A stretch of DNA of 64,000 bases from Minisyncoccota bacterium (GTDB lineage: Bacteria > Patescibacteriota > Minisyncoccia > Phycocordibacterales > UBA9973): contig JBAYUN010000001.1 of the NCBI GenBank assembly GCA_041675085.1, positions 87,347 to 151,346 on the forward strand, read 5' to 3'. The notes beneath the pieces are model-generated. The model saw nothing but the letters and a program-made list of their open reading frames with translations. It was not told the DNA's origin and made no database searches. The translations under genes were made by a program, and so were the position numbers. This document shows, in pieces, positions 7,453-63,413 of the stretch (the first letter of the stretch is position 1; every line of letters starts with the position of its first letter).

Positions 7453-7473
7453 TAATATAAAAATATATGAATC

Positions 7474-7570
7474 CCGTTAGATATTTTAAAGAACGGGCAT
7501 GAATGAAATAGTGTTATTCAAATTAATAACTTACAAGAAAATTAATAATTAATCAAAAATATTTAACGGG
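7474..7570. repeat. Inverted-repeat element with arms CCCGTTA(A/G)ATATTTT...AAAATATTTAACGGG; right arm abuts the scpB ATG
   Basis: Same arm (catcccgttaaatatttttgattaa) directly abuts the start codons of the genes at 30388 and 37817; a second inverted arm lies at 37895-37918. Confidence 0.55.
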
Positions 7571-8119
7571 ATGAATAATTTAGAAACAAAAATAGAAGCA
7601 TTACTTTTCTTTAAAGCTGAACCTGTGAGCCTTAAGAAATTGGAAGATTTACTAAAAGTCTCGAAAACAGAAATCCTAGAAGCACTAGAGAGTTTAAAGA
7701 ATAATTTATCAAATCGAGGTATTGTTTTGATGGAAAAAGACGAAGAGTATACTATTGCTGTCAGCCCAGTCTATAGTGATATGATAGAAGAAATTCAAAA
7801 AGAAGAATTGAATCGTGATTTATCAAAAGCTAGTCTAGAGACTTTGTCTATAATCCTCTACAAAAACGGAGCAAGTCGTAGCGAGATAGATTTTATCAGA
7901 GGAGTGAATTCGAGCTTTACCTTGAGAGCTTTACTCGTGAGAGGTCTGGTAGAAAAAGTTGTTTCTAATGAAGATAATAGAAAGTACGTCTACAAACCAA
8001 CTTTCGACTTATTGTCTTTTATGGGAGTTTCAAATATTTCTGAATTGCCAGGATGGGAAGAACTAAATAGTATGATAGAAAAAACTATTATTGAGAATAA
8101 TGAAGAAGAAATATCTTAA
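7571..8119 (+). CDS. scpB: Segregation and condensation protein B
   Basis: IEALLFFKAEPVSLKKLEDLL and tandem winged-helix pattern; adjacent to scpA. Confidence 0.75.
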   Translation: MNNLETKIEALLFFKAEPVSLKKLEDLLKVSKTEILEALESLKNNLSNRGIVLMEKDEEYTIAVSPVYSDMIEEIQKEELNRDLSKASLETLSIILYKNGASRSEIDFIRGVNSSFTLRALLVRGLVEKVVSNEDNRKYVYKPTFDLLSFMGVSNISELPGWEELNSMIEKTIIENNEEEIS

Positions 8120-29683: not shown

Positions 29684-30388
29684 TTATTTTATTGTTATGC
29701 TTTTGATAATAACAGGTTCTAAGGGTTTATCACTAGGATCTGTAGGAGTCTTGTTTATATCGTAAACCACTTCCATACCTGAGGTAACTTTACCGAAAAC
29801 TGTATGCTTTGGGTCTAGGAAATTATTGGCAGCTACGTTGATAAAGAATTGACTGCCGTTTGTATTCGGGCCTGCATTTGCCATAGATAGAGTTCCTACA
29901 TCATTCTTGTTTGAAGCGGTGATCTCATCTTCAAATTTATATCCCGGACCGCCAGTACCCCAAGAAGATTTTAAACTATCATCTTTAGATAAAGGGTCTC
30001 CAGCTTGGTTCATAAAGCCTTCTATAACACGGTGAAACTTTGTATCATTATAAAATCCTTGTTGCGCTAATTTTACGAAATTAGCTACTGTTTTTGGAGT
30101 TAAGTCTCCAAAAAGCTCTACTGTAAATGTGCCCTTAGTTGTATTGAATGTTGCTTGCATAGTTTTTTTGTTGTTATTATTAATTTTAATTTCTTCTTGA
30201 TTTTTAATTACTTCTTCTTGATTTGGATTTGTTGTGATTTCATTTTCTTGTGTTTCTGTTTGAATTTCTTGATCTATCACCTTCTCGCTATTTGATAAAT
30301 CTACAGTAGCGACTTTATTTTGAATATAGAAATAAATACCCAAACCCAAAAGACAAATTACAGAAATTACTATTATGATATTCTTCAT
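29684..30388 (-). CDS. Cyclophilin-type peptidyl-prolyl cis-trans isomerase, membrane/secreted
   Basis: FHRVIEGFMNQAGDP, GTLSMANAGPNTNGSQFFI cyclophilin signatures; N-terminal TM. Confidence 0.8.
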   Translation of the reverse strand: MKNIIIVISVICLLGLGIYFYIQNKVATVDLSNSEKVIDQEIQTETQENEITTNPNQEEVIKNQEEIKINNNNKKTMQATFNTTKGTFTVELFGDLTPKTVANFVKLAQQGFYNDTKFHRVIEGFMNQAGDPLSKDDSLKSSWGTGGPGYKFEDEITASNKNDVGTLSMANAGPNTNGSQFFINVAANNFLDPKHTVFGKVTSGMEVVYDINKTPTDPSDKPLEPVIIKSITIK

Positions 30389-30441
30389 CCCGTTAAATAT
30401 TTTTGATTAACTTATAATATAAACACACGTTTCAATTTAAT

Positions 30442-36455: not shown

Positions 36456-37817
36456 TTAAATACTCTCCGGCACATCAAATATAGTTTTCTCTAATTTTTC
36501 TTTCAAAAATATTTCACTAATTCTCTTGCCTCCATACACAGACGGCAATATTCCTACCCCATTACAACCTAGATTATACAATAAGGTTTTATTCTTTGGT
36601 TCGGGTCCGATGAGTCGAATACCGTTTCTCGTATAGCCCATAAGTCCGTGCCATGTATACACATAATCTATTTCTTTATTTGGTTCTTTGTCATACACAG
36701 ACCTGACAAAATCATCAATAGTTTTCACCATCTCGTCAGGAAATTCATTTTTCCTAGAATACAATCTCCCGTCTTCAATATCTATCTCAGGTCCACCGAT
36801 AGAAATCAAATTATAATTTTTATCCATTTCATAATTCCTACGAGTGAGATAAAAATACGGATCATCTGTAGTCGCGTCTGGATTAGTAAAATAACTAATA
36901 GCGATAGGATTCTTGTCCATAGGCTCTAAGTATCCAGACATATAACCAATAGTCCCTTTGACTAGGTGATGGAATTTTGTATCAATATCAAGGCCTCCTT
37001 CATTTAAAATATGAAATCCTTCAAAGCCATTGGTGCACAAGATTATATTTTTTGCCTCGACGGTATGAGTCTCAGCGTCCAGTATCGCATAGTCATCTTT
37101 TAATACAACTTTATTAATTAAAGTTTTCTCATAAAGATGAAATCTATCTCCATATTTTTCAATTAGATAGAGCAATACTTCCTCGCAGAACAAAGCGCTA
37201 TTCACACAACCTTTTTGATACGACAATACAGCTACAAAACTCTCATCCTGAGTCTCTAGTAATTCTAAGATATTTTTATGAACTGCTAGAGTATATAAAT
37301 CTTGATATTCATGAGGTATTTCGTTAATAAAATCCGCCTCTGACGATATTAGGATTCTCTCAATATCTAATCCTCCTCTTTTTCTAAAGAAATTATTCTT
37401 AAGATGCAACAAGACTTGATCAAAACTCGAAAGTCCAGCGTGACCTAAAAATCTAGAGAAATTAATATCGAGTCGTGCATCGGTATACATCTCGTCGAGC
37501 AGATTCCAGGCATCTTCAATATCTCTCTGACCCCGACTTGCGAGTTCGAGTCCAAAACTATCTACAAGGCTCGCAAATCCCCTCTCAAAATAACTCACGA
37601 CTTGTCCGGCATTATGACCCGTCGAACCATGAGCTAATTTATTTTTTTCTAAAACGACCACATTTTTATCAGTATATTTCAACAAGAAAAAAGCCGTCGA
37701 AATACCAGCGATACCTGCGCCCATGATTGCTATATCTGTTTTGATATCTTGATCTAATTTAAAATGAACTCTATCTTTGCGTAATTGAGTTAGCCAGGGT
37801 GATTTATTTTCTTTCAT
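36456..37817 (-). CDS. FAD-dependent oxidoreductase (DAO family)
   Basis: DIAIMGAGIAGISTAFFL Rossmann motif. Confidence 0.65.
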   Translation of the reverse strand: MKENKSPWLTQLRKDRVHFKLDQDIKTDIAIMGAGIAGISTAFFLLKYTDKNVVVLEKNKLAHGSTGHNAGQVVSYFERGFASLVDSFGLELASRGQRDIEDAWNLLDEMYTDARLDINFSRFLGHAGLSSFDQVLLHLKNNFFRKRGGLDIERILISSEADFINEIPHEYQDLYTLAVHKNILELLETQDESFVAVLSYQKGCVNSALFCEEVLLYLIEKYGDRFHLYEKTLINKVVLKDDYAILDAETHTVEAKNIILCTNGFEGFHILNEGGLDIDTKFHHLVKGTIGYMSGYLEPMDKNPIAISYFTNPDATTDDPYFYLTRRNYEMDKNYNLISIGGPEIDIEDGRLYSRKNEFPDEMVKTIDDFVRSVYDKEPNKEIDYVYTWHGLMGYTRNGIRLIGPEPKNKTLLYNLGCNGVGILPSVYGGKRISEIFLKEKLEKTIFDVPESI

Positions 37818-37957
37818 CCCGTTAAATATTTTTGATTAATTTATAATTTTTATACATGTTATAATTCTTTAATTAAACTAATTTATTTATACCCGATATT
37901 TAAAATGTTTAACGGGATTCATACCCATATTATAACTGAAAAAGAGAGATATTAAAA

Positions 37958-43876: not shown

Positions 43877-44251
43877 TTAATTAATCTTAACCTTTCGTAA
43901 AATTTTCTCCATATCTCGCCCTTTTGCCAATTCGTCTACCAATTTATCCAAATACCTAACTTTTTGAGTTAAAGGATTTTTAATATCTTCAATTCGATAA
44001 CCACATATCATCCCTTTTATTAAATGTGCATTTTGATTTATTTTTGCCTTATGGAAAAATTCTTCAAAAGTAGCTTTGTTGTTTATAAATTTCTTTAGAT
44101 TAGTTTCGGTATATCCTGTGAGCCATTTGATAACCTTATGTAGCTCTTCTTTTGTTCTACCTTTCTTCTCTACCTTTATTACATAATAAGGATAAACAGA
44201 AGAAAAAGTCATCCCCGCCATACGTTCATCATGCTTTTTTAAATCTTTCAT
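43877..44251 (-). CDS. DUF2200 family protein
   Basis: MAGMTFSSVYPYYVIKVEKKGRTKEELHKVIKWLTGY matches DUF2200. Confidence 0.6.
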   Translation of the reverse strand: MKDLKKHDERMAGMTFSSVYPYYVIKVEKKGRTKEELHKVIKWLTGYTETNLKKFINNKATFEEFFHKAKINQNAHLIKGMICGYRIEDIKNPLTQKVRYLDKLVDELAKGRDMEKILRKVKIN

Positions 44252-44292
44252 AATTTTATTATATCAGATTATGTTTTATAAAATCTAGAATT

Positions 44293-44712
44293 TTATAGCT
44301 TTAAATACACTTCGAAAGCATTTGCTAAATTATCTATAATATTATAATTCTTATAGTCTTCTGGTCTAATCCAGATATACTCATCATGATCTTTACTTAA
44401 AACTATATTTTCATTCAAAGTTTCGCAAACGAAATATACACCTATCACTTGCCAGTTCTCGTCTTTAACTTTTGGTCTCCATTCCCCAACGCAAAAAGAT
44501 TGCAAAACTTGAATCTCTAAACCAGTCTCCTCATAAACTTCCCTTTTCAAACTCTCTTCCAATTTCTCTCCGGGTTTTATTCGTCCTCCTGGGACGTCAT
44601 ATTTAGCAAAATTAGTCCCATCTTCATAACTTGAAGATTCTTTCAATATCAAAATCTCTCCTTTTGTATTTTTAATAAAACCTTTACTCGCGACGAATAG
44701 TTTGTAATCCAT
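44293..44712 (-). CDS. NUDIX hydrolase
   Basis: Nudix box GGRIKPGEKLEESLKREVYEETGLEI. Confidence 0.75.
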   Translation of the reverse strand: MDYKLFVASKGFIKNTKGEILILKESSSYEDGTNFAKYDVPGGRIKPGEKLEESLKREVYEETGLEIQVLQSFCVGEWRPKVKDENWQVIGVYFVCETLNENIVLSKDHDEYIWIRPEDYKNYNIIDNLANAFEVYLKL

Positions 44713-44719
44713 GCTTTTA

Positions 44720-45238
44720 TTATATTAAATTTAAAGATTTATAATCCTTTATTAAACTTAAAGCTGTTTGTTTTTCAGTTGGGTTTTCTATATTATCTGC
44801 CCAGTTAGTTGCTTCAGTCAAATCGTCATTTGCCAAAAAATATAATAATTTTGTTATTTGATTCGAATTACGATTATCTTTATATTCAAGAGCTTTAGTT
44901 GAATACAATTTTGCTTTTTCTTTATCTTTCTTTTGAAAAAGAGCGCAACTAGTAGCGTGATGATACCAAAACCAAAGTATCGATTCTTTAGTATCTTTTT
45001 CTTCTTTTGTTAAACCAATATCTCCAACATTCTCTATCAAATTTTTAATTTTATTTATAATCAAATCAGAGTCCTCATAATCCCAAGAATAACTATCCAT
45101 CAATCTTTGATCTTCTTGAAAATACAAATCATGCAATTCTGCTGAATTTAGAACATCAAAAGTAGAATAAATAGAGTGCAAAGGACTTTCGTTTTTAGGT
45201 AAATCCCCTTCTGAATTATTTGTAAATGATTCTTTCAT
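44720..45238 (-). CDS. Hypothetical helical (TPR-like?) protein, 172 aa
   Basis: ORF with own leaderless promoter; no motif. Confidence 0.4.
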   Translation of the reverse strand: MKESFTNNSEGDLPKNESPLHSIYSTFDVLNSAELHDLYFQEDQRLMDSYSWDYEDSDLIINKIKNLIENVGDIGLTKEEKDTKESILWFWYHHATSCALFQKKDKEKAKLYSTKALEYKDNRNSNQITKLLYFLANDDLTEATNWADNIENPTEKQTALSLIKDYKSLNLI

Positions 45239-45270
45239 GCTTTTATTATACTATAAATTTAGAATTTATT

Positions 45271-45293
45271 TTAGCAAGGACGGTCCTTGCTAA
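45271..45293. repeat. 23-bp perfect palindrome TTAGCAAGGACGGTCCTTGCTAA, copy 1 of 3
   Basis: Identical copies at 45271-45293, 48381-48403 and 49258-49280. Confidence 0.7.
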
Positions 45294-45296
45294 TTA

Positions 45297-45335
45297 ACAA
45301 AACCCTTACTCGCGACGAATAGTTTGTAATCCATG
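45297..45335 (-). repeat. Duplicate (37/38 nt) of the NUDIX gene start plus upstream; forms a 14-codon remnant ORF (MDYKLFVASKGFVN) that ends inside the palindrome
   Basis: aaaacc[t/c]ttactcgcgacgaatagtttgtaatccatg present at 44677-44712 and 45297-45335. Confidence 0.65.
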
Positions 45336-45346
45336 TTTTGATTATA

Positions 45347-45742
45347 CTACAAATTCTCATCAAGGAACTTTTTTAAAGCAATCAAATCTTTCTTTTCTTT
45401 GTCATAATGATAAGAAATAATTCCTACTGATTCGGCGGATTTTGCAGCATCAGAATTGTGTTCAAAATAAATAACATCATTTTTATCAAAATTATATGTA
45501 TCAAGCAAGGTTTTAAAATAAACAGGTTCTACTTTATCAGGATTATGCTTCATTGTAAAAACAGGATAAGGCACAGAATCAAGACCAAATTTAATGATTT
45601 GCTCATCGTCAGCATTAGTTAGGATAAGTTTTGGATTTGGATATGTTTCAAGTAAATCAAATAATTCTTTATATTGAATATAATTACCTGCCTCGTTTTT
45701 TAGAATTATAGTATTCACCGCATCAATAAGTATCGTTTTCAT
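45347..45742 (-). CDS. Small HAD-like fold protein with degenerate motif I (putative)
   Basis: ILIDAVNTI (DxxxT instead of DxDxT), VIYFEHNSDAAKSAESVGI motif-IV-like; weak. Confidence 0.3.
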   Translation of the reverse strand: MKTILIDAVNTIILKNEAGNYIQYKELFDLLETYPNPKLILTNADDEQIIKFGLDSVPYPVFTMKHNPDKVEPVYFKTLLDTYNFDKNDVIYFEHNSDAAKSAESVGIISYHYDKEKKDLIALKKFLDENL

Positions 45743-45754
45743 ATTTTTATTATA

Positions 45755-46081
45755 CTACAATCTAAATTCAAAATTAATAATCTTAACTTCTGTGTCTTTA
45801 TTTACTTTATCTCCATAGAATTTCTTAAAATCCGAATACATATCTTCATCAGAATCATACCGAGCGTGCCCTACCCAGTCTTCTTCATTCAAAGTACCAA
45901 GGGTTTTAATTTTAAGAGAAATTATTTTCCCATATCCAAAAGTCTCAAGAGTTTCTTTGTTTATAAATTCAAGCTCATCCCCAAGTTTTAAATCCTTATC
46001 ATCAAAAAGCCTCCAAGTAGTAGTCTTTTCTCCTGTCAGTATTTTATCAACTAAATCTGAATTAAATTTTATGGGTTTCAT
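45755..46081 (-). CDS. ASCH (PUA-like) domain protein
   Basis: VDKILTGEKTTTWRLFDDKDLKLGDELEF resembles the ASCH core. Confidence 0.45.
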   Translation of the reverse strand: MKPIKFNSDLVDKILTGEKTTTWRLFDDKDLKLGDELEFINKETLETFGYGKIISLKIKTLGTLNEEDWVGHARYDSDEDMYSDFKKFYGDKVNKDTEVKIINFEFRL

Positions 46082-46095
46082 TATATTGCTTACAT

Positions 46096-47022
46096 TTAAT
46101 TATTGATATATTTAGGAAATACCAACTGGAACATTTCAGCCTCTTTTAACAACCATTCAAAGTAATCGCTCCATTTAGCCTCATTTTCAAAATCACCTTT
46201 TAGGGAAATCTTAATTCTACTAGCCTTCTTGTTAGGTAACTCCATCCATTCTAATTTTTCATTTAATTCACCTTCTATTTTATCTTTATTACTCAAGATA
46301 TTAGCATACAGCTCTTTATTATTTGAGATATAAATCTCTACACCAAGAAACCCGTCTCTTGAATTAAGAGTCAAAGAAAGACTACATTCACTGCTACCAA
46401 TACTTATGTTTGTCCAATGTTGAGGATAACTTTTTTGAAAACGCAATTTAGTATTATTTTGTTTTGCAAAACTTTTGAATTCATCCCAAAATTGAAGTTG
46501 TTTAATTTTAGTTTCAGTTAGCTCTAAACTTTCAGTAGTACTCTTTAAGACTTTTGCCCAATCATTGGGCTTTGAAATTATTTCAAACTTAGGAGCAAAA
46601 GGAGAATCAGCAATTTGCCAAAGTTCTATCTTTAACAAATAGAAACCAATCTCTTCATTGGTATTTTCATTAAGCCAGTCTATTGCTTTTCTATGTTCTT
46701 CTCTAACATCCTTAACTACCCATAAAATAATCCTTGCATCATAACCAGAAGCATAAGTGATAAGTTTACCTAAATGATCATGATTAGTTATCTCTAACTG
46801 ATTTTCAATAATTATTTTATGACCAGTACTTTCTTCTTCTGCCAGAATATCAACATTAAAACTCCCAACTTTTGCTTCAGTCTGAATTAATTTTATGTCA
46901 AAACCAATTTCATCACCCAAGAGATCAAGATTTTCTTCTTGTGCTAACCATTTAGTAAAGTCATTAGCTTCATGTTTCCAACCTTCACGTAATTCAATTT
47001 TTTTAAGTTTTCCTAAATTCAT
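46096..47022 (-). CDS. PD-(D/E)xK / NucS-like nuclease-fold N-terminal domain plus DUF4268-like C-terminal domain protein
   Basis: ELREGWKHEANDFTKWLA..LGDEIG..IQTEAKVGSFNVDILAEE..GHKIIIENQL (D..E.Q) pattern. Confidence 0.4.
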   Translation of the reverse strand: MNLGKLKKIELREGWKHEANDFTKWLAQEENLDLLGDEIGFDIKLIQTEAKVGSFNVDILAEEESTGHKIIIENQLEITNHDHLGKLITYASGYDARIILWVVKDVREEHRKAIDWLNENTNEEIGFYLLKIELWQIADSPFAPKFEIISKPNDWAKVLKSTTESLELTETKIKQLQFWDEFKSFAKQNNTKLRFQKSYPQHWTNISIGSSECSLSLTLNSRDGFLGVEIYISNNKELYANILSNKDKIEGELNEKLEWMELPNKKASRIKISLKGDFENEAKWSDYFEWLLKEAEMFQLVFPKYINN

Positions 47023-47310
47023 ATTAATATTTATTAATGTTTTATTAATTTACCTACATATCCCTAATAAGTTCCAATTTCTTGTCTCTACTCCATCGCT
47101 TCAACTCCGCCTCTCGTTTTCTGGATTCGTTATATGTCTCGAATTCTTCTTTGTATTTTAGGATTACTGGTCGGCGGATTTTTGTATAATGGGCACCAGA
47201 TTTTGAATTATTATGCTATACCAATCTACGTTCTAGGTTATTTGTAGACCCTACGTACAAGGTTTTGTCTTTGCATTCTAAGATATAAACAAAATACATA
47301 ATAAGTAAAA

Positions 47311-47706
47311 CTAAAAATTACCGCTCAAGTACAAACCTAAAACTGTCATAGACAGCATAAGAATAGCAGGAATACTTTTTACAAAAGAATCTCTGACTTT
47401 AATATGCATACCGATAGCTCCAAGCATAAGGATAGCTAGGATTGCCAAAGCAGGCAAACCAAACAAAGCTAAAATATTTGCACTAAATAATCCGAGAATC
47501 ATAACGAGAGATATTGCTAGTTTTAAAAAGCCAACAATATACATAAACCAAACAGGTAGACCATAAGCAGAGAATTCTTCTTGCATGTTTTTTGCTCCCG
47601 CGCCACGATATTTTGTAGCCATAGAGAATCTCAAAATCCAAACATTAATAAGTCCAAAAGCAATGATAATTTGCAAAAAAGGCAGAACGAAAATATTTAT
47701 TTCCAT
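47311..47706 (-). CDS. DoxX-like 4-TM membrane protein
   Basis: 131 aa, four TM helices. Confidence 0.45.
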   Translation of the reverse strand: MEINIFVLPFLQIIIAFGLINVWILRFSMATKYRGAGAKNMQEEFSAYGLPVWFMYIVGFLKLAISLVMILGLFSANILALFGLPALAILAILMLGAIGMHIKVRDSFVKSIPAILMLSMTVLGLYLSGNF

Positions 47707-48011
47707 ATGAAAAAAATTATTAATAATATATACAAATTATCAACTAATATACATCGCTTTGCAAGGGTTTTAAATCTATTTAAATATCTAGTGCTTATAG
47801 CTATTAGTCAAAATGCACACTAGTTGTTTGCAATATAATTCTCTACTGCATGAATATCGATTAACTGATGTGGATGTTCATCGTCAGCTAGTTCTTTTTT
47901 ATAAGCAACTAAATCACGAGGATCAATAAGTGAAATTTCAATAGCATTGATTGTTTTAGATATTGTGGGGAATTTTCTAAAATGATCTTTTGTTTGAAAC
48001 CATTCTGTCTG

Positions 48012-48332
48012 CTATTTATTACTCATTTTCAAAGTATCAATATCTGTAATATCAATATCTTGATTATTATAGTTTAAACACAAGGTATCGCAATCCCACT
48101 TTGCATTTAAATAATGTTTTGGTCCAGAAGTAATATAATCTTTAGCTTCCGAAACGATGATAGGAAAATATTCTCCAGGCAATGAAAAATCTAAATCATT
48201 TACAGGACGAGATGAGCCATATACATGCGCAGCAAACCCTCCTCCAATACGGTAAGGTATATTGTGTTTATTTAATATACCTACGATCCATTTAAGTGCA
48301 TTTATTGTTTTTTCTTCTAATTTTATTTCCAT
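48012..48332 (-). CDS. ANT(2'')-like nucleotidyltransferase, N-terminal 106 aa; an in-frame TAG is followed by a further 63 open codons (47823-48011), so this is a disrupted gene or read-through candidate. ATG start at 48332 (MEIKLEEK); ORF track used an upstream TTG.
   Basis: IPYRIGGGFAAHVYGSSRPVNDLDFSLPGE is close to the ANT(2'')-Ia core LPLWIGGGWAIDARLGRVTRKHDDIDLTFPGE; downstream frame checked codon by codon. Confidence 0.5.
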   Translation of the reverse strand: MEIKLEEKTINALKWIVGILNKHNIPYRIGGGFAAHVYGSSRPVNDLDFSLPGEYFPIIVSEAKDYITSGPKHYLNAKWDCDTLCLNYNNQDIDITDIDTLKMSNK

Positions 48333-48380
48333 AAGAATATTATAATACAATCAATTTATTTTTTTGAGTTTTAGCGAGTT

Positions 48381-48403
48381 TTAGCAAGGACGGTCCTTGC
48401 TAA
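48381..48403. repeat. 23-bp palindrome copy 2, with tandem GCTAAAACTC duplication at one end
   Basis: Read directly. Confidence 0.7.
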
Positions 48404-48434
48404 TTATTTCCATATGAAAAAAATTATTAATAAT
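48404..48434 (-). repeat. Duplicate of the DoxX-like gene start region (47697-47727), giving a 9-codon remnant (MEIISKDRPC) that runs into the palindrome
   Basis: tttccatatgaaaaaaattattaataatat present twice. Confidence 0.6.
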
Positions 48435-48510
48435 ATTTTAAGTATACCATTTCGACCGTACTTGAGCACCTTTAAAAGCAGTAAATTTAAGTTATTTTTT
48501 ATTAATCTAC

Positions 48511-49209
48511 CTAAGAGGTAAATCTACATTTTGGAAAGGCTGAACACCCTAAGAATTTACCAAACTTACCTTCTTTTTCCAAAAGCTCATTGCCACATTT
48601 AGGACAAACTTGTTTAATATTATTTGCTTTAACAGTATCAACCTTTTTAACATTTTGAGCTATCCTGACATATTCAATCAACTTAAAGCTATCAACAAGT
48701 TCTATTGGTTTATCTTCTGCGAATTTTTCTGCTTCAAGAGTAAATTTATTTGTTGTTATAAAATACCCTTTACCATTCGCAACATGATCTGCTAATGCTC
48801 CATAAAAATCTCTCACAGCTCCAACTGGTACTTGGCTAGTGATGAACTTTTTACATTGTATGTAATTTATTATTCCGTTTTTTTCTGCAGTGACATCAAT
48901 TCCCCCATCATGTGACCTACCGACAGCATTTGTCTTATAGCCAAGTTGAAAGAAAAGATCAGCTATATATTTTTCAAATTCATTTGATTTCATTCCTCTA
49001 AGTTGCTGTAAAAGTTCTCTATCAGAACGCCATTCTTGACCATTTTTTATATTTCTTTTTCTTTTCCATTCAGCAATTTTATCTGGAACAATAACTTCAA
49101 GTAATATCTTTAATAACAATAATAATCCTAATCCAACCCAAATAGGCCATAAAGCAAAAAATCCGTGTAAAAAACTTTTATACAAAACAGAATAATCAAT
49201 AATTTGCAT
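48511..49209 (-). CDS. Membrane-anchored Mrr-type restriction-endonuclease catalytic domain protein with C-terminal topoisomerase-type C4 zinc ribbon
   Basis: GRSHDGGIDVTAEKNG..INYIQCKKF..VPVGAVRDFYGAL..KGYFITTNKFT (Mrr_cat pattern); CPKCGNEL..CSAFPKC zinc ribbon. Confidence 0.6.
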   Translation of the reverse strand: MQIIDYSVLYKSFLHGFFALWPIWVGLGLLLLLKILLEVIVPDKIAEWKRKRNIKNGQEWRSDRELLQQLRGMKSNEFEKYIADLFFQLGYKTNAVGRSHDGGIDVTAEKNGIINYIQCKKFITSQVPVGAVRDFYGALADHVANGKGYFITTNKFTLEAEKFAEDKPIELVDSFKLIEYVRIAQNVKKVDTVKANNIKQVCPKCGNELLEKEGKFGKFLGCSAFPKCRFTS

Positions 49210-49257
49210 AATTATATATTATCATAAAAGTGACAAAAGTGACCCAAAAGCAATACT

Positions 49258-49280
49258 TTAGCAAGGACGGTCCTTGCTAA
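49258..49280. repeat. 23-bp palindrome copy 3, with tandem TAATTAGCAAG duplication at one end
   Basis: Read directly. Confidence 0.7.
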
Positions 49281-49324
49281 TTACTTGCTAATTACAGATT
49301 TTTTAATACAATTTCTACTTATTT

Positions 49325-50221
49325 TTACGATTTCGTATATTCTAAAATAGTCTCATATACGATATCATCAGATATTTCATTAATATGACTCTTTATGATT
49401 TCTTCTTTTTCTTGATAAATATTAGAAAAAATTACATACATTTTCTCGTAAGCATCTTGAATACTTTGATACTTATTCTTTTTATTTAAATTTTTCTCAT
49501 CTTTAATTAGTTCATTTAAATAATTTCTAAAATAATTAATCTGATACATGGACTCTAGAATTATTTTACTTTGCATAGGATCATTCGCTAATTTTTTATT
49601 CCTATCAGCACTCTCACCTCCCCAAGTTTTGAGTAATTTTTCTGCACTAGATTGCCTTGTACCAACTACAACTTTTGGCACCAAAAGCTCTTTGTGCTCA
49701 CCTGTACTAGGATCTTCAAAATATTTCAACTTAGGAATAAGACCATTTTTTAATAACAATTTAATACCATCTAATTTAGAAATAATATTTCTTTTATCAT
49801 TAGCAAAAGCCACATCAACACCAAGACCGAGATATTCCTCAGAATCTTCTTCTCTGTATATAGAAACTATATCTACGCCGTATTTAATATCATCATACCT
49901 AGAAGCAGGGACTACTTCTGTATTTTCACCTAGCCAATTATTAGACTCTATCTGATCAGCTAAAACAGCTTCTAGTAAAGAAGAGAGTTCTGTTTTATAT
50001 TTTTGTTCTTCATTGTTATGGAAATTTTCTTCTATCTTTCGCATCTCTTCTAAGTCAGCAAGAATTTCACTTTCTGGATAGATATCAACAAAGTCCATTT
50101 CTTTTGGACGAAATTGATCAACAATTTTTGCCTTCTTCTCATGCAAATGTTTCATGAGTTTTGGATTCTCTGATAAAGGAATAGGTTTGATAAGATTCAA
50201 ATTTTCAAATTTAAAATTCAT
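49325..50221 (-). CDS. Hypothetical protein, 298 aa, acidic, no recognisable domain
   Basis: Clean ORF; upstream carries the GTCACTTTT x2 motif. Confidence 0.4.
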   Translation of the reverse strand: MNFKFENLNLIKPIPLSENPKLMKHLHEKKAKIVDQFRPKEMDFVDIYPESEILADLEEMRKIEENFHNNEEQKYKTELSSLLEAVLADQIESNNWLGENTEVVPASRYDDIKYGVDIVSIYREEDSEEYLGLGVDVAFANDKRNIISKLDGIKLLLKNGLIPKLKYFEDPSTGEHKELLVPKVVVGTRQSSAEKLLKTWGGESADRNKKLANDPMQSKIILESMYQINYFRNYLNELIKDEKNLNKKNKYQSIQDAYEKMYVIFSNIYQEKEEIIKSHINEISDDIVYETILEYTKS

Positions 50222-50357
50222 TGCTGTGATGATTGAGCTAGAACCCCATGGCTCCGTACCCTGTAATATTATTTTTAATACTTATATTGTATCATTTCTA
50301 CACTACTTGAGCACGTCAAAAAGTGACAAAAGTGACACAAATCAAGAAAAAATAAAA

Positions 50358-50388
50358 AAGCCTAAGTTTTTCTTAGGCTTTTATTTTA
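50358..50388 (-). terminator. Intrinsic terminator after the 413-aa gene (AAGCCTAAG/CTTAGGCTT, flanked by A and T runs; bidirectional)
   Basis: Read directly. Confidence 0.6.
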
Positions 50389-50406
50389 GTAAATTTATTG
50401 TAATAC

Positions 50407-51648
50407 CTATACTAATGGTATTTCAGGGGATACATACCCATCCGCACATTCTATCCAAAAATTTGCAACATCAAAATTTTCAATTTCAGAAGTTTCAATT
50501 TTATCAACACTATTCCAAAAACTTTCTGTTGTTACTGGTCTCAGATACACAGTTTTTTGATTTGGCTCCGTTAAATCTAATTGAATACCAATAACGTTAA
50601 CATGAACACGGCTACGAATTATATTCACTACTTCAGAAGTATACAAAGTTTTATGTACTGCTTTTGCCCAATTAATGAACCTTGTTTTATTTTCTTCGTC
50701 ACTTAATTCAAAGTTTGGCTCACAAGTTTTCCATAGATCTCTTAAACTTTCTGAATTATCAATAATACTTTGCAGTTGTTCTACAATACCAGGAGGTATT
50801 ATAAATTTAATACTTTTTTCAGGAATTGTACCGCTTCCAATCACATTAACTTGTGGAAAAATCTTATGTGAATGCATCATAAAAAAAGATAGACTATTTT
50901 TATGAGGAACAGCATCAATAATCTCTGATGAACTACTCTGGAGCCAAGACATCCCACCGCTTGCAGATGGTCCACTTAATTCCAAGCCACCATTTTTTGT
51001 ATTAACAAAAGCAAAAGATTTTGCACCAGCCAGATTCCGTATTCTATCCAAAGATTCTCCAATATTACAAAATTCTTTACAGGTACTAATTAAATAATCA
51101 ATATCTTCCATTCTTTCTTTCTTAATTAATCCATTTAATTTCTCTCGTATTCCCTCTAATGCTTGAATAAATGCAAGAGAAGGGGTCCCAATATGAGAAA
51201 ACCCAACATTACTACTAAAATTTCTAAATGGTGAAGATTCTGAAGAGAGTTGAGGTAAAGCTACCTTATTTTTTTGTAACCTTGCTTCAACTTCATCTTT
51301 GACCTCTAGCCAATTATTCATAAGTTGTTCAAATTCACGTGCAAGATGAAGTGTGAAAAGATTTGGATTCATTACTCCAGAACTTGCATACATGTATTTT
51401 TTATTTTCATGCTCTACATAATCACCAGCAGCTATACCAATTGCTGGCTTCCGTCCAGGTATAAAATGTACATTTTCACAGAAAATAATTAAATACATTA
51501 ACGATATAACGTCATCAGGAAAGGTTAAAGGTTCCCCAAATTCAGCTACTTCAAATGATGTCTCACTTTTCATTTGTGCAAGGGCATCATTTACTTTTTT
51601 GATAATTGTTAAGTCGCTAAACAATTCATCTAATTTTGGATGTTTCAT
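50407..51648 (-). CDS. Hypothetical protein, 413 aa, no recognisable domain
   Basis: Clean monocistronic ORF with own terminator and a palindromic site near its promoter. Confidence 0.4.
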   Translation of the reverse strand: MKHPKLDELFSDLTIIKKVNDALAQMKSETSFEVAEFGEPLTFPDDVISLMYLIIFCENVHFIPGRKPAIGIAAGDYVEHENKKYMYASSGVMNPNLFTLHLAREFEQLMNNWLEVKDEVEARLQKNKVALPQLSSESSPFRNFSSNVGFSHIGTPSLAFIQALEGIREKLNGLIKKERMEDIDYLISTCKEFCNIGESLDRIRNLAGAKSFAFVNTKNGGLELSGPSASGGMSWLQSSSSEIIDAVPHKNSLSFFMMHSHKIFPQVNVIGSGTIPEKSIKFIIPPGIVEQLQSIIDNSESLRDLWKTCEPNFELSDEENKTRFINWAKAVHKTLYTSEVVNIIRSRVHVNVIGIQLDLTEPNQKTVYLRPVTTESFWNSVDKIETSEIENFDVANFWIECADGYVSPEIPLV

Positions 51649-58542: not shown

Positions 58543-58967
58543 AAGTAAATTATAATTTATAAAAGATGATTTTTAACCTGTTGATTGTTTACTCTTGCAA
58601 AAAAGTAATATTGTTCTATAATTAAACCAGTTCTTTGGAATTATTTATACGGTAGCTCAACAATGAATTTGCATCCTATTTTTGGAGCGATTCGTATGTT
58701 GGTACAACGAGGAACTTTTCTATTGTATGGATTAATTGTATCTTATGCTTTGACGGTCGGTTTAAGGAAACACCTTAACTCAGGCAAAAGGATAAAATAA
58801 ATCTAAACAAGAAACTGGTGTGGAGTTGGTAATTTGGTAGCCGCTTTTAGCGTGCTAATAGATTGCCAATTCTACGTCAATAAAAGTTAAAATAATATTG
58901 AAAAAGAAAAAGGCGGCTACCAAGTCGTTTTTTTTGTTTGTCTATTATTAAATTTAACCTAAAAAAT

Positions 58968-60293
58968 ATGTCTGAAAAAATTAAAATCGTGCATGTGCAT
59001 GTGAGCGAGCTTAAAGTTGCTGACTATAATCCCCGTAAGTGGGATAAGGAATCTGAAGCTCAACTAAAAGAAAGTATTAAGAAGTATGGTATTGTCGATC
59101 CTTTATTAGTAAACGGTGCCGAGGAAAGAAAAAATATTGTTATCGGTGGACACTTTAGACTGGCTGTGATTAAAGAGCTTGGAATAGAAGAAGTGCCAGT
59201 CGTCTACATTAATATTCCTGACATTGAAAAAGAAAAAGAACTGAATCTTAGGCTTAATAAAAATACTGGAGAGTTTGACTTTGATCTACTTGCTAAATTC
59301 GATGAAAGTTTTTTAGCCGATGTTGGTTTTAGTTCTGAAGAAATGGATAAGATATTTGAAGAAGAAAAAGAAGAAGAGCAATTTGATTTAAACAAAGAAT
59401 TAGAAAAATTAAATATCGAAAAGATAACTGTCGAAAAGGGTGACGTCTACGATTTAGATGGTTCACGACTTATGTGTGGCGACAGTACTATAGAAGCAGA
59501 TATGTTAAAGCTTTGTGGTGAACATAAAATAGATATGGTTATGACTGATCCGCCATATATACTGGATTACTTACACGGAAAAACAAAACAAGGTAAAGCA
59601 ACTGAAGGGTTTGGTGCAAAGAAGAACCGTAGATATCTTGAGACAGATGTATTGCCTGATAACTTTACTGAATTATGGATGGCAAACGTACACAAAGTTC
59701 AAGCCGACAACTTCTCTATTATTTGCTATGAGAATTGGAAAAACATTAGAATCATTTGGAATGAAATGGATAAGTATTGGAAGGTAAAGAATATGCTCGT
59801 ATGGCACTTAGCTAATAGGAATCAGGGATATGCAGGTAAGCATAAATTCTTTTCTAAATACGATATAGCCATGGTTGCTACTAATACAGAACATAGTGGA
59901 TTACAAACTGAACCAGAAGAAGAATTACTTGAGAATGAATACAATACTGCTTTGTTTGCCATATCAGGTTCTCCTCAGTGGGAAAGCTATGGTAAAGGTA
60001 AAAAATATTGTCCTACTGATCATATAGAACACTTAGCAGCTGACGAGAAATCTTCAGGTCAAGGTATTATCTTTGGTACGAAACCACTAGAGATATTAAT
60101 CCCCTACATCAAAGTATTAACTACTAGAGATCAGCTCGTTCTCGAGCCATTTGGTGGCTCAGGATCCACATTAATTGCGTCTATAAAGATAAAGCGTAGG
60201 TGCTTTCTAATGGAAAAATCACCAGTTTATGCTGAAGTTATTCTTAATCGTTGGGAGAAGTTTACTGGTAAGAAAAGAGTCAAAATATCTTAA
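58968..60293 (+). CDS. ParB-like nuclease domain fused to beta-class DNA methyltransferase (N6A or N4C); ORF track starts at TTG 58938, ATG at 58968 preferred
   Basis: N-terminal ParB/Srx fold (VHVSELKVADYNPRKW..IVIGGHFRLAV); MTDPPY (motif IV) precedes EPFGGSGST (motif I). Confidence 0.75.
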   Translation: MSEKIKIVHVHVSELKVADYNPRKWDKESEAQLKESIKKYGIVDPLLVNGAEERKNIVIGGHFRLAVIKELGIEEVPVVYINIPDIEKEKELNLRLNKNTGEFDFDLLAKFDESFLADVGFSSEEMDKIFEEEKEEEQFDLNKELEKLNIEKITVEKGDVYDLDGSRLMCGDSTIEADMLKLCGEHKIDMVMTDPPYILDYLHGKTKQGKATEGFGAKKNRRYLETDVLPDNFTELWMANVHKVQADNFSIICYENWKNIRIIWNEMDKYWKVKNMLVWHLANRNQGYAGKHKFFSKYDIAMVATNTEHSGLQTEPEEELLENEYNTALFAISGSPQWESYGKGKKYCPTDHIEHLAADEKSSGQGIIFGTKPLEILIPYIKVLTTRDQLVLEPFGGSGSTLIASIKIKRRCFLMEKSPVYAEVILNRWEKFTGKKRVKIS

Positions 60294-61491: not shown

Positions 61492-61775
61492 AAACTTTGG
61501 ACGGTTTTATTTAGCCAAGTGGTAGCAAAAAGCTCCTAGCCAGGCCGACTACACCCTTGAGTGTAACCCATACCCCTTTCGAGATATGACCGTCCAAAGT
61601 AGCTCTGACTAAGAGTTCTTTACTTTGGACGGATTTATGACCATATCCTATAAACATTAAGGTTTTTAGGGGTTAGGTCGCTTATTAAGTTATAAAATAA
61701 TTCTAGCACATTTCAAGTGCTTTTGACATCCTAGCTTAGATTAGGAATTAGTGGTAATTAGTTACCAACAGATGA

Positions 61776-63413
61776 TTAAAAACCAAGCTTACGGTTCTTT
61801 AGTCTTCGAGTTACCAACTTAGCGTGAATAGTCTTAAGTTGGGCAATTTCTTCGTTACTCATTTTATAATAATCTTTTAAGATTATTTCGTCGGTGTATC
61901 TAAGTACATCTTTGATGCCAACTTTAGTTCTTAGCATATTGTCTAGTTTTTCTAACTGAGATTGTTTAATTTTTTTACAGTAAGGTATGGAGAGGTTTTT
62001 ATATTCATTAGGAGTTAGCTCAAGAACACCGCCACCATAATAACGACCTTCTAATTCAGCAAATATTAAAGTTAAAGTGTTATAGAAAGAAAATACTAAA
62101 TCGCTAACCTTATTCTCGTCTTTCATTCTAATTCTATAAAAAGCGTCAGTCACATACGACTTCGCTTCGTTCATAGCCATTCTCGGAAAGAGATTAGATC
62201 TCTTTGTGAAAATTCCTTCTGAAACCCAAACTGATGGAACAAAATACCAATTATTACGCAGTTTACATTTGTATCTTTGGTCTATTAATCGATCTTCTCC
62301 AATTTTTAAGTACTCTTTAGCTTCTTTTGAAAAAGATTTTTGATTAACGTCTTCAAATCTTAAAAAGAAAGCGGGTTTACCTCTTTTGGAAATATTTTTT
62401 TGATCAACCTTTGTAAAATTGTTTGTAGATGGCATTAATGAGCCTTTTTGTAGAATTGGTTTTGCTATATTTTGAAGTTTATATTTTTCCACAATTTCTT
62501 TATCTACTATAAAGTAGTCATTCGCCGCAGTAACAATACCTACCTCGGCTCGACAGTAATTCTTGATAGGCAAAAATCGAGTCTTAAGAGTATCTAAAAA
62601 TTTTAGTTCCTTATCCAGCAAAATATAGTTAGTCCATTTATCAAGAGTTTGTCTATGAATATTACTATTCTCTTCTACATAGGTAGGTTCTTTTAAATCT
62701 TCTAGTTTATCTACATGGTAAAAAGAGACACCGGGTGTTTGTTTTTTTGCACAAATCAATATTATTACATCTTGCTCGATGTCAGGAAAAATAAGTTCAT
62801 TAAAAGCAAATATTTCAATCTTCTGAAAGTTGTCTCTTAAGTAACCTCTAAGCTCTTTAGCATATATAACCTGCAACAGCTCAGCTGGTAACACGAAACA
62901 AATAACCCCATTCTCGTTAAGAGACTGAACACCTGAAATAAGAAAACTAGTCCAAATGTTTTTTATACTTTTAGGACTCAAATTTGCTCCCTTATGAATT
63001 GCTTCACAGGATTCAATTTGTTTCTTTGTTAGGTAGTTACTTTTTATATATGGAGGATTACCTATAACTAAGTCAAACTTCTTTTTGTTCTTCTTATTAA
63101 ACTCTAAATAATCTTCATTAAAATAGTTAATTTTCTGTGAAGCAAGGAGACGCTTCTTGTTTTTCTTTTTTGAAATTTCTATTTCCTCCTTATCTTTTTC
63201 AATAGCATCTATAGTTATATTTTTAGGAAGCTTGAATCTTCCCTTAAACGTAGTATTGGAAAACATGGAATCAAAAAAGTTTCCATCACCAGAGCTTGGC
63301 TCTAGAACGTTTATACTGTTACTGAAATCATATTTATCAAACAAATGAAAAACTATGAAATCTGCTAGTAACGAGGGCGTATAATATGCACCATTTTCCT
63401 TGTTTGATATCAT
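61776..63413 (-). CDS. Gamma-class N6-adenine DNA methyltransferase (Eco57I/TaqI-like) with C-terminal target-recognition region
   Basis: GAYYTP (motif X), LEPSSGDGNFF (motif I), VIGNPPYIKS (motif IV) in X-I-IV order. Confidence 0.8.
   Translation of the reverse strand: MISNKENGAYYTPSLLADFIVFHLFDKYDFSNSINVLEPSSGDGNFFDSMFSNTTFKGRFKLPKNITIDAIEKDKEEIEISKKKNKKRLLASQKINYFNEDYLEFNKKNKKKFDLVIGNPPYIKSNYLTKKQIESCEAIHKGANLSPKSIKNIWTSFLISGVQSLNENGVICFVLPAELLQVIYAKELRGYLRDNFQKIEIFAFNELIFPDIEQDVIILICAKKQTPGVSFYHVDKLEDLKEPTYVEENSNIHRQTLDKWTNYILLDKELKFLDTLKTRFLPIKNYCRAEVGIVTAANDYFIVDKEIVEKYKLQNIAKPILQKGSLMPSTNNFTKVDQKNISKRGKPAFFLRFEDVNQKSFSKEAKEYLKIGEDRLIDQRYKCKLRNNWYFVPSVWVSEGIFTKRSNLFPRMAMNEAKSYVTDAFYRIRMKDENKVSDLVFSFYNTLTLIFAELEGRYYGGGVLELTPNEYKNLSIPYCKKIKQSQLEKLDNMLRTKVGIKDVLRYTDEIILKDYYKMSNEEIAQLKTIHAKLVTRRLKNRKLGF

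Follow-up and report, generated by a model that had tools for sequence, protein, structure and literature searches.

Why would three unrelated genes begin with exactly the same letters? The question was raised by the window, as we call the whole 64,000-nt stretch of DNA analysed here, in which an earlier note had pointed to an identical 26-nt leader fused to the ATG of scpB, of a cyclophilin gene and of an FAD oxidoreductase gene. Pfam searches confirmed the three genes, whose products contain the ScpB domain PF04079, the Pro_isomerase domain PF00160 and the DAO domain PF01266, respectively. The identity at the three gene starts is also real, but its length was misjudged: the string quoted in the note has 22 letters, and the true identity comprises these 22 nt plus ATGAA. 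The resulting 27-nt sequence, TTAATCAAAAATATTTAACGGGATGAA, occurs with 0 mismatches at 7549-7575 (+), 30384-30410 (-) and 37813-37839 (-). When up to 3 mismatches were allowed, the window contained exactly 3 matches, while none was obtained in 100 dinucleotide-preserving shuffles (0/100), a result that refutes the alternative of a low-complexity AT sequence. The 14-nt arm, which the note had proposed to count, gave 5 matches in the window with at most 2 mismatches, against 1.3 expected, and 5 matches were reached in 2/100 shuffles; the enrichment of the arm by itself is borderline. Inverted arms are present, as the note had described, at the scpB site (7473-7486, 1 mismatch) and at the oxidoreductase site (37903-37916, 1 mismatch).

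Alignment of the three sites showed that the shared leader belongs to a 99-100-nt element, whose right end it forms. Homology between the scpB site (7466-7575, +) and the oxidoreductase site (37813-37923, -) extends over about 110 nt, with each site running in the direction of its gene, while that of the cyclophilin site to the other two is restricted to the right-hand ~46 nt. The element is bounded by terminal inverted repeats of 15 nt each, CCCGTTAAATATTTT and AAAATATTTAACGGG. In both long copies the sequence runs ATGAAT, CCCGTTA.A.ATTTT ... AAAATATTTAACGGG, ATGAA, so that the 15-nt inverted repeats lie inside a direct repeat made of the start codon and two further bases. The unit is thus this element and not a 26-nt leader, and instead of being fused upstream of the ATG it is inserted within the start codon region, with duplication of the motif ATGRA. 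The features read from the window are as follows.

7467-7471, + strand: left duplication ATGAA at scpB, where scpB originally started and an upstream ORF now begins (from direct reading and the empty site)
7472-7570, + strand: complete element copy 1, 99 nt, from T+CCCGTTAGATATTTT to AAAATATTTAACGGG (from the alignment and a 104-bp spacer difference)
7473-7487 (left) and 7556-7570 (right), + strand: inverted repeats of copy 1
7467-7502, + strand: upstream ORF of copy 1, created by the insertion (MNPVRYFKERA, then stop)
7492-7497, + strand: internal AACGGG of copy 1, complementary to CCCGTT of the left repeat and able to form a local pairing that would replace the long-range stem
7571-7575, + strand: right duplication ATGAA at scpB, the present scpB start (gene 7571-8119)
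37818-37917, - strand: complete element copy 2, 100 nt, with its right inverted repeat at 37818-37832 and its left one at 37902-37916
37918-37922, - strand: left duplication ATGAA, the old start of the FAD oxidoreductase gene
37887-37922, - strand: upstream ORF of copy 2 (MNPVKHFKYRV, then stop), beginning at the old oxidoreductase ATG
37813-37817, - strand: right duplication ATGAA, the present oxidoreductase start (gene 36456-37817)
30389-30434, - strand: right-hand remnant of ~46 nt, directly before the cyclophilin start ATGAA at 30384-30388 (gene 29684-30388)

A TATAAT box (37929-37934) stands 6 nt upstream of the old oxidoreductase start. At the cyclophilin gene the left half of the element, the left ATGAA and about 26 nt of native spacer have been lost; this truncated copy shows that the right half alone is tolerated before a gene that is retained.

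Mobility of the element was assessed by comparison with a close relative recovered from Logan (SRR28493914-16), whose ScpB and oxidoreductase proteins are 98% identical to those of the window. All three window insertions are absent from this relative, and the spacers compare as follows.

scpA-scpB spacer: 118 nt in the window, 14 nt in the relative (L027/L028), whose empty site is ...GTTATAATAAAATAAAAATAT/ATGAATAATTTAG
spacer before the oxidoreductase gene: 140 nt in the window, 35 nt in the relative (L038), whose empty site is ...CAGTTATAATATGGGT/ATGAAAGAAAAT, i.e. ...GGGT/ATGAAA...
spacer before the cyclophilin gene: 53 nt in the window, 31 nt in the relative, which has no element sequence there

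The first two differences correspond to insertions of 104 and 105 bp, which is exactly the 99-100-nt element plus the duplicated ATGAA. At the empty scpB site of L027/L028, the junction reads ...AAAAATAT/ATGAATAATTTAG, i.e. ...ATAT/ATGAAT..., with a single copy of the motif. The oxidoreductase locus is likewise empty in relatives at 88-89% identity. Two more filled/empty pairs, at the gene of a 264-aa protein and at pyrG, were found between L011 and the metagenome contig L084, which brings the comparisons to five (scpB, oxidoreductase, cyclophilin, 264-aa protein gene and pyrG). These data show that the element is mobile and, since three window insertions are missing from a relative with 98%-identical proteins, that it has moved recently. 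They bear out the suggestion of the earlier note that a MITE-like element had been copied in front of genes: inverted repeats, a duplication and numerous copies are all present, and orthologous sites in close relatives are empty. At a VIT-family gene, L003 and L084 both carry a copy, which goes back either to an old insertion common to the two or to recurrent insertion; the encoded proteins share 76% identity, and the third codon positions 52%. Among the examined loci of the other element-bearing MAGs, no element-free orthologue was found.

In order to determine the extent of the family, the 19-mer ATCAAAAATATTTAACGGG was scanned against one genome per species. Of the 26 matches, 18 fall in five related MAGs (13 in CAYNAO01, 2 in CAYTMO01 and 1 each in CAYLQJ01, CAYLLX01 and CAZFSV01), and the other 8 are chance matches in unrelated taxa without the element. 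A profile built from the 19-mer matches revealed four additional diverged copies. Altogether at least 28 full copies and 1 remnant were found in the source genome, the five related MAGs and one metagenome contig, with at least 18 copies in the loci examined of CAYNAO01. The source genome has 4 copies within about 84 kb, the fourth of which is situated between dnaB and recR (L162 7382-7512, -), about 2.6 kb left of the window start. The contig L084 carries two copies and, among the matches listed, is the only one of 116 metagenome loci with true copies. Viral contigs gave 4 chance matches and no element, and the plasmid collection gave AT-rich chance matches only and no element.

The element measures 99-100 nt, with variants ranging from 69 to 101 nt, and is non-coding apart from an ORF of 7-20 codons that begins outside the element. 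The shortest variant, of 69 nt (L013 1968-2044), has the same ends and an ATGAAT duplication, which shows that the family includes deletion derivatives. In an alignment of 24 copies the ends are nearly invariant and the interior is variable (10-35% different between copies); the 15 pairs of the inverted repeats are intact in 23-24 of the 24 copies. The right end appeared better conserved than the left, but this observation was dropped because most copies had been found via the right end.

The source MAG, whose ScpB (NCBI MFA7285331.1) is identical to that of the window, is labelled Candidatus Paceibacterota (placed by NCBI under the phylum Minisyncoccota), while CAYNAO01, CAYLQJ01 and CAZFSV01 are labelled Candidatus Saccharibacteria. 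The oxidoreductase orthologues of the element-bearing MAGs are nevertheless 66-88% identical to that of the window, indicating a single CPR clade under inconsistent labels. As far as seen, the element is confined to this one CPR/Patescibacteria clade. Neither an autonomous element nor a transposase bearing these ends turned up in the window or across about 230 kb of loci from the clade, and a search there for distant pairs of the end motif and for long inverted repeats 0.6-4 kb apart gave nothing. Pfam searches with 20 of the larger window proteins detected no transposase. The element constitutes a new MITE family of one CPR clade, of a known kind but unusual in its placement and in the gene architecture that it produces. 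As an explanation of the data as a whole, a non-autonomous MITE of 99-100 nt that sits on start codons, and whose coupling to gene expression is inferred, is the best one and very probably correct.

The target-site duplication deserves closer attention. ATGRA is present on both flanks of filled sites and in a single copy at empty sites. The fourth base of the left and right ATGRA is concordant in 25 of 28 copies (19 A/A and 6 G/G), and no A/G or G/A pair was found; in the 24-copy alignment the corresponding counts are 16 A/A and 6 G/G (Fisher p = 1.3 × 10−5). The nearest relatives of G-type copies are A-type copies, so the variable base comes from the target and not from the element lineage. 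This argues against an element that carries its own copy of the motif, and also against an origin by microhomology or template switching, which was rejected because it predicts discordant A/G pairs and none was seen. The same data also fit a 4-bp duplication, TGRA, of an element whose ends are T and A. Two G-type copies, unrelated to each other, read ATGTA on the left, the copy at L009 7495 and the recR copy of L162 (where the right copy is ATGGA). Avoidance of the restriction site GGATCC, which G-type insertions create at their left junction, was considered as the cause of the ATGTA left copies and discarded, since this site is not avoided in these genomes.

Every copy that was found lies on an ATG[A/G]A start codon and is co-oriented with the gene (29/29 for orientation). 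In the window, ATGRA occurs 402 times on the two strands: 32 gene starts, 36 other intergenic sites and 334 coding sites. With about 73 genes, the window is 88% coding, and only 44% of its genes start with ATGRA. If every non-coding ATGRA tolerated insertion equally, the probability of finding 27/27 insertions at starts would be about 1 × 10−9. Insertion of the element clearly involves recognition of the ATGRA sequence. The restriction to start codons and to one orientation could originate from the insertion machinery, or from selection that removes other insertions from a genome that is about 88% coding.

The context of the target sites is also distinctive. A Shine-Dalgarno-like motif precedes only 2 of the 73 window genes. 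A -10-like hexamer is located exactly 6 nt before the ATG of 14 genes and 5-9 nt before that of 18 genes, which indicates that leaderless-type starts are common in this CPR genome. Among 27 insertion sites, 18 carry such a -10-like box upstream of the old ATG at a distance of 5-9 nt, usually 6, compared to 18 of the 73 genes (p = 1.6 × 10−4). The targets at scpB and pyrG are operon-internal starts, which indicates that a leaderless context is preferred, not required. A bolder proposal is that the element, or its transposase, actively recognises starts (ATGRA, preferably after a -10 box) in one orientation and has in addition evolved into a self-rescuing cassette, with a restored start, an upstream ORF and coupling through a stem; we put this forward tentatively, as possible but rather doubtful. 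A search of the full-text literature on MITEs, leaderless genes and CPR bacteria found no published report of an element placed on start codons.

These upstream boxes also bear on a possible role of the element as a promoter, which the earlier note had suggested. The main contribution of the insertion would then be to supply the gene with a promoter and a transcription start. Most copies do contain a TATAAA/TAAATT-like stretch 20-28 nt before the ATG, and the cyclophilin gene was kept even though about 26 nt of its native upstream spacer went missing with the truncated copy. Yet at the three loci no sigma-70-type consensus (-35 and -10 hexamers at a spacing of 16-18 nt) is found within the element on the gene strand, the candidate hexamer differs among copies, and the host -10 box is kept upstream of the insertion at most sites (18/27 for the -10-like box defined above). 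Initiation at the TATAAA-like stretch would also leave about 13-15 nt of leader before the gene, whereas the promoters of this genome are sharply spaced at 6 nt. We therefore consider a promoter function in this sense unlikely.

Slightly less probable still is that the element is moved by site-specific recombination, through a tyrosine recombinase of Xer-like or integrase-like type, rather than by a DDE transposase. The joined ends would form AAAATATTTAACGGG-ATGRAT-CCCGTTAAATATTTT, in which inverted arms of 15 nt enclose a spacer of 6 nt in the manner of lox/dif-type sites, and crossover within ATGRA would fix both target and orientation. This geometry of arm, spacer and arm follows directly from the sequence, and it would account for a fixed 5-nt target and for an orientation that is constant in 29/29 copies. 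However, the target sites have nothing in common with the arms beyond ATGRA, the A or G of the duplication follows the target and not the element lineage, and no recombinase adjoins any copy. A single recombinase was encountered, a large serine recombinase encoded in an island outside the window, for which nothing points to a connection with the element; enzymes of this class are known to exchange strands at a 2-bp core without generating a 5-bp repeat.

The fixed orientation and the fixed pentanucleotide target are shared with single-strand transposons of the IS200/IS605 type, of which the element could be a palindrome-associated derivative, and a hairpin near its left end (CCCGTTA...TAACGGG) is in keeping with such an origin. 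But IS200/IS605 elements, which carry hairpins near both ends, are not known to have terminal inverted repeats or to generate a duplication, while the present element has true terminal inverted repeats and a duplication with a target-derived base, and it lacks a matching hairpin at its right end; we judge this descent very improbable. Least credible of all is that a regulon shares an old cis-acting RNA leader, such as a riboswitch, attenuator or operator, in place of mobile DNA, for although the sequence always lies 5' of genes, co-oriented with them, with a possible leader peptide and alternative pairings, its presence or absence differs between genomes with 98%-identical proteins, its junctions carry exact duplications, it has no Rfam match at the gathering threshold or at E values up to 1, it displays no covariation, and the genes downstream (those of RNase H, HIT, P-type ATPases, aldolase, RpiB, TatD, DprA, ExoIII, CTP synthase, RecR, ScpB and peptidyl-prolyl isomerases) are functionally unrelated, which excludes a regulon. 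An integron attC site was also rejected, as the motifs are in reverse order (GTTARAT ... ATTTAAC versus RYYYAAC ... GTTRRRY), the copies lie 5' of housekeeping genes and there is no array.

Other features were observed in the window and next to it. About 5 kb beyond its right end, a defence-like island of the source contig (L164 3496-8718) with SMODS and DUF6602 genes adjoins the Eco57I-like methyltransferase gene at 61776-63413 of the window; it comprises the large serine recombinase mentioned above (Resolvase, Recombinase and Zn_ribbon domains, 425 aa) and a 772-aa HATPase protein. A LOOT RNA (Rfam RF03000, 79 bits for a gathering score of 46) is located at 61547-61679 (-), between a 220-aa ORF and this methyltransferase gene, and the ORF at 58938-60293 (+) encodes both a ParB N-terminal domain and an N6/N4 DNA methylase domain. 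The stretch 44000-51000 is characterized by a low GC content (0.29-0.31), small genes and leaderless-type starts. It contains a 30-nt palindromic repeat, TTTTAGCAAGGACGGTCCTTGCTAATTA, at 45267, 48377 and 49254, as well as repeated gene-start segments at 44672/45294 (56 nt, 91%) and 47694/48401 (36 nt, 97%). This stretch may be a cluster of paralogous genes with shared hairpins after the genes.

Returning to the MITE on start codons, we consider what such an insertion would mean for the expression of the gene. Once the element is in place, the old ATG remains beside its promoter or its upstream gene and opens an upstream ORF of 7-20 codons (consensus MNPVKYFK, then stop), which ends well before the gene and whose frame relative to the gene varies. 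The right end of the element is A/U-rich, like the Shine-Dalgarno-free upstream regions of other internal genes here. RNAalifold predicted that the two repeats pair over 15 columns, including the AU of the AUG of the gene. No compensatory change was found in the stem (0/15 pairs); the paired columns hardly vary, and a contribution of RNA pairing is thus inseparable from the conservation of the transposon ends. The predicted fold of copy 1 has a free energy of -22.4 kcal/mol (z = -3.8), while that of copy 2 (-15.6 kcal/mol, z = -0.6) is no better than its shuffles. Over 28 copies, the predicted unpaired probability around the AUG of the gene is 0.24 in the full transcript versus 0.54 when the first 33 nt are kept single-stranded, as they would be under a ribosome on the upstream ORF.

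These predictions suggest the following scenario. The transcript would start with the upstream ORF, which runs through the left repeat. The two repeats would form a stem of 15-17 bp that includes the AU of the AUG and would hide the start of the gene, until a ribosome translating the upstream ORF opens the stem and exposes it. The A/U-rich right end might then serve as a leader free of Shine-Dalgarno sequence, of the kind that this genome uses for internal genes. Insertions on start codons would be tolerated since the element itself provides for continued expression of the gene. The unmasking of the AUG by upstream translation is thermodynamically plausible in these models, from which we infer an effect of the element on the expression of the downstream gene. 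The upstream ORF and the stem are not indispensable for the gene, since the copy at L019 1205 has lost its upstream ATG and the cyclophilin copy lacks the left half altogether.

Comparison with known systems helps to place the family. The Correia elements (NEMIS) of Neisseria are about 100-150 nt long, have inverted repeats and a TA duplication, and are found in both orientations at varied intergenic positions; they are co-transcribed with neighbouring genes, their repeats can form an RNA hairpin, and their presence varies between strains. The element described here resembles them in size, terminal inverted repeats, short duplication, its many gene-adjacent copies and presence/absence variation, and also in a predicted co-transcription with the adjacent gene, in which its repeats could pair as an RNA hairpin. 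In contrast, it occupies ATGRA start codons only and in one orientation, and its insertion restores the start codon and gives rise to an upstream ORF. The sequences are not similar either, the 15-nt repeats being unrelated to the 26-nt repeats of the Correia consensus; an insertion sequence that matches the element is not known, and the host is a CPR bacterium, not Neisseria. The Rickettsia palindromic elements insert in frame into coding sequences and are translated as part of the protein. They too are small palindromic mobile elements of reduced genomes whose insertion the gene survives, whereas the CPR element is not part of the protein and generates a second start codon. Insertion sequences with a chosen target and orientation (IS200/IS605 and those homing to REP or attC sequences) have in common with it a short specific target and a single orientation, but not the signature of terminal inverted repeats and duplication. 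To our knowledge, none of these insertion sequences targets start codons. For the proposed mechanism, the closest parallels are the coat-replicase coupling of MS2 and leader-peptide attenuators such as that of ermC, in which an upstream ribosome melts a helix that hides a downstream AUG. The likeness is one of analogy, and here the helix would be made of the transposon ends.

CPR genomes are tiny, and mobile DNA in them has been little described. For annotation, the element explains identical "leaders" before unrelated genes, and recent insertion polymorphisms are useful strain markers. The family persists by occupying precisely the start codon, among others in scpB, recR, pyrG and aldolase genes, while leaving the genes intact. 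If this placement is driven by the insertion machinery, it is a choice of target without known precedent; if it is driven by selection, it reveals how little room such genomes leave for insertions. In an organism with few Shine-Dalgarno sequences, every insertion puts an upstream ORF and about 105 nt of structured leader in place of a leaderless or coupled start, and the insertions are thus natural constructs for studying translation initiation in such organisms. Should the tentative proposal of active start recognition with self-rescue be true, the element could settle on the start codons of essential genes in genomes that have hardly any DNA to spare. This would represent a new lifestyle for a bacterial transposon, and would offer a natural probe of leaderless, Shine-Dalgarno-free translation in CPR bacteria.
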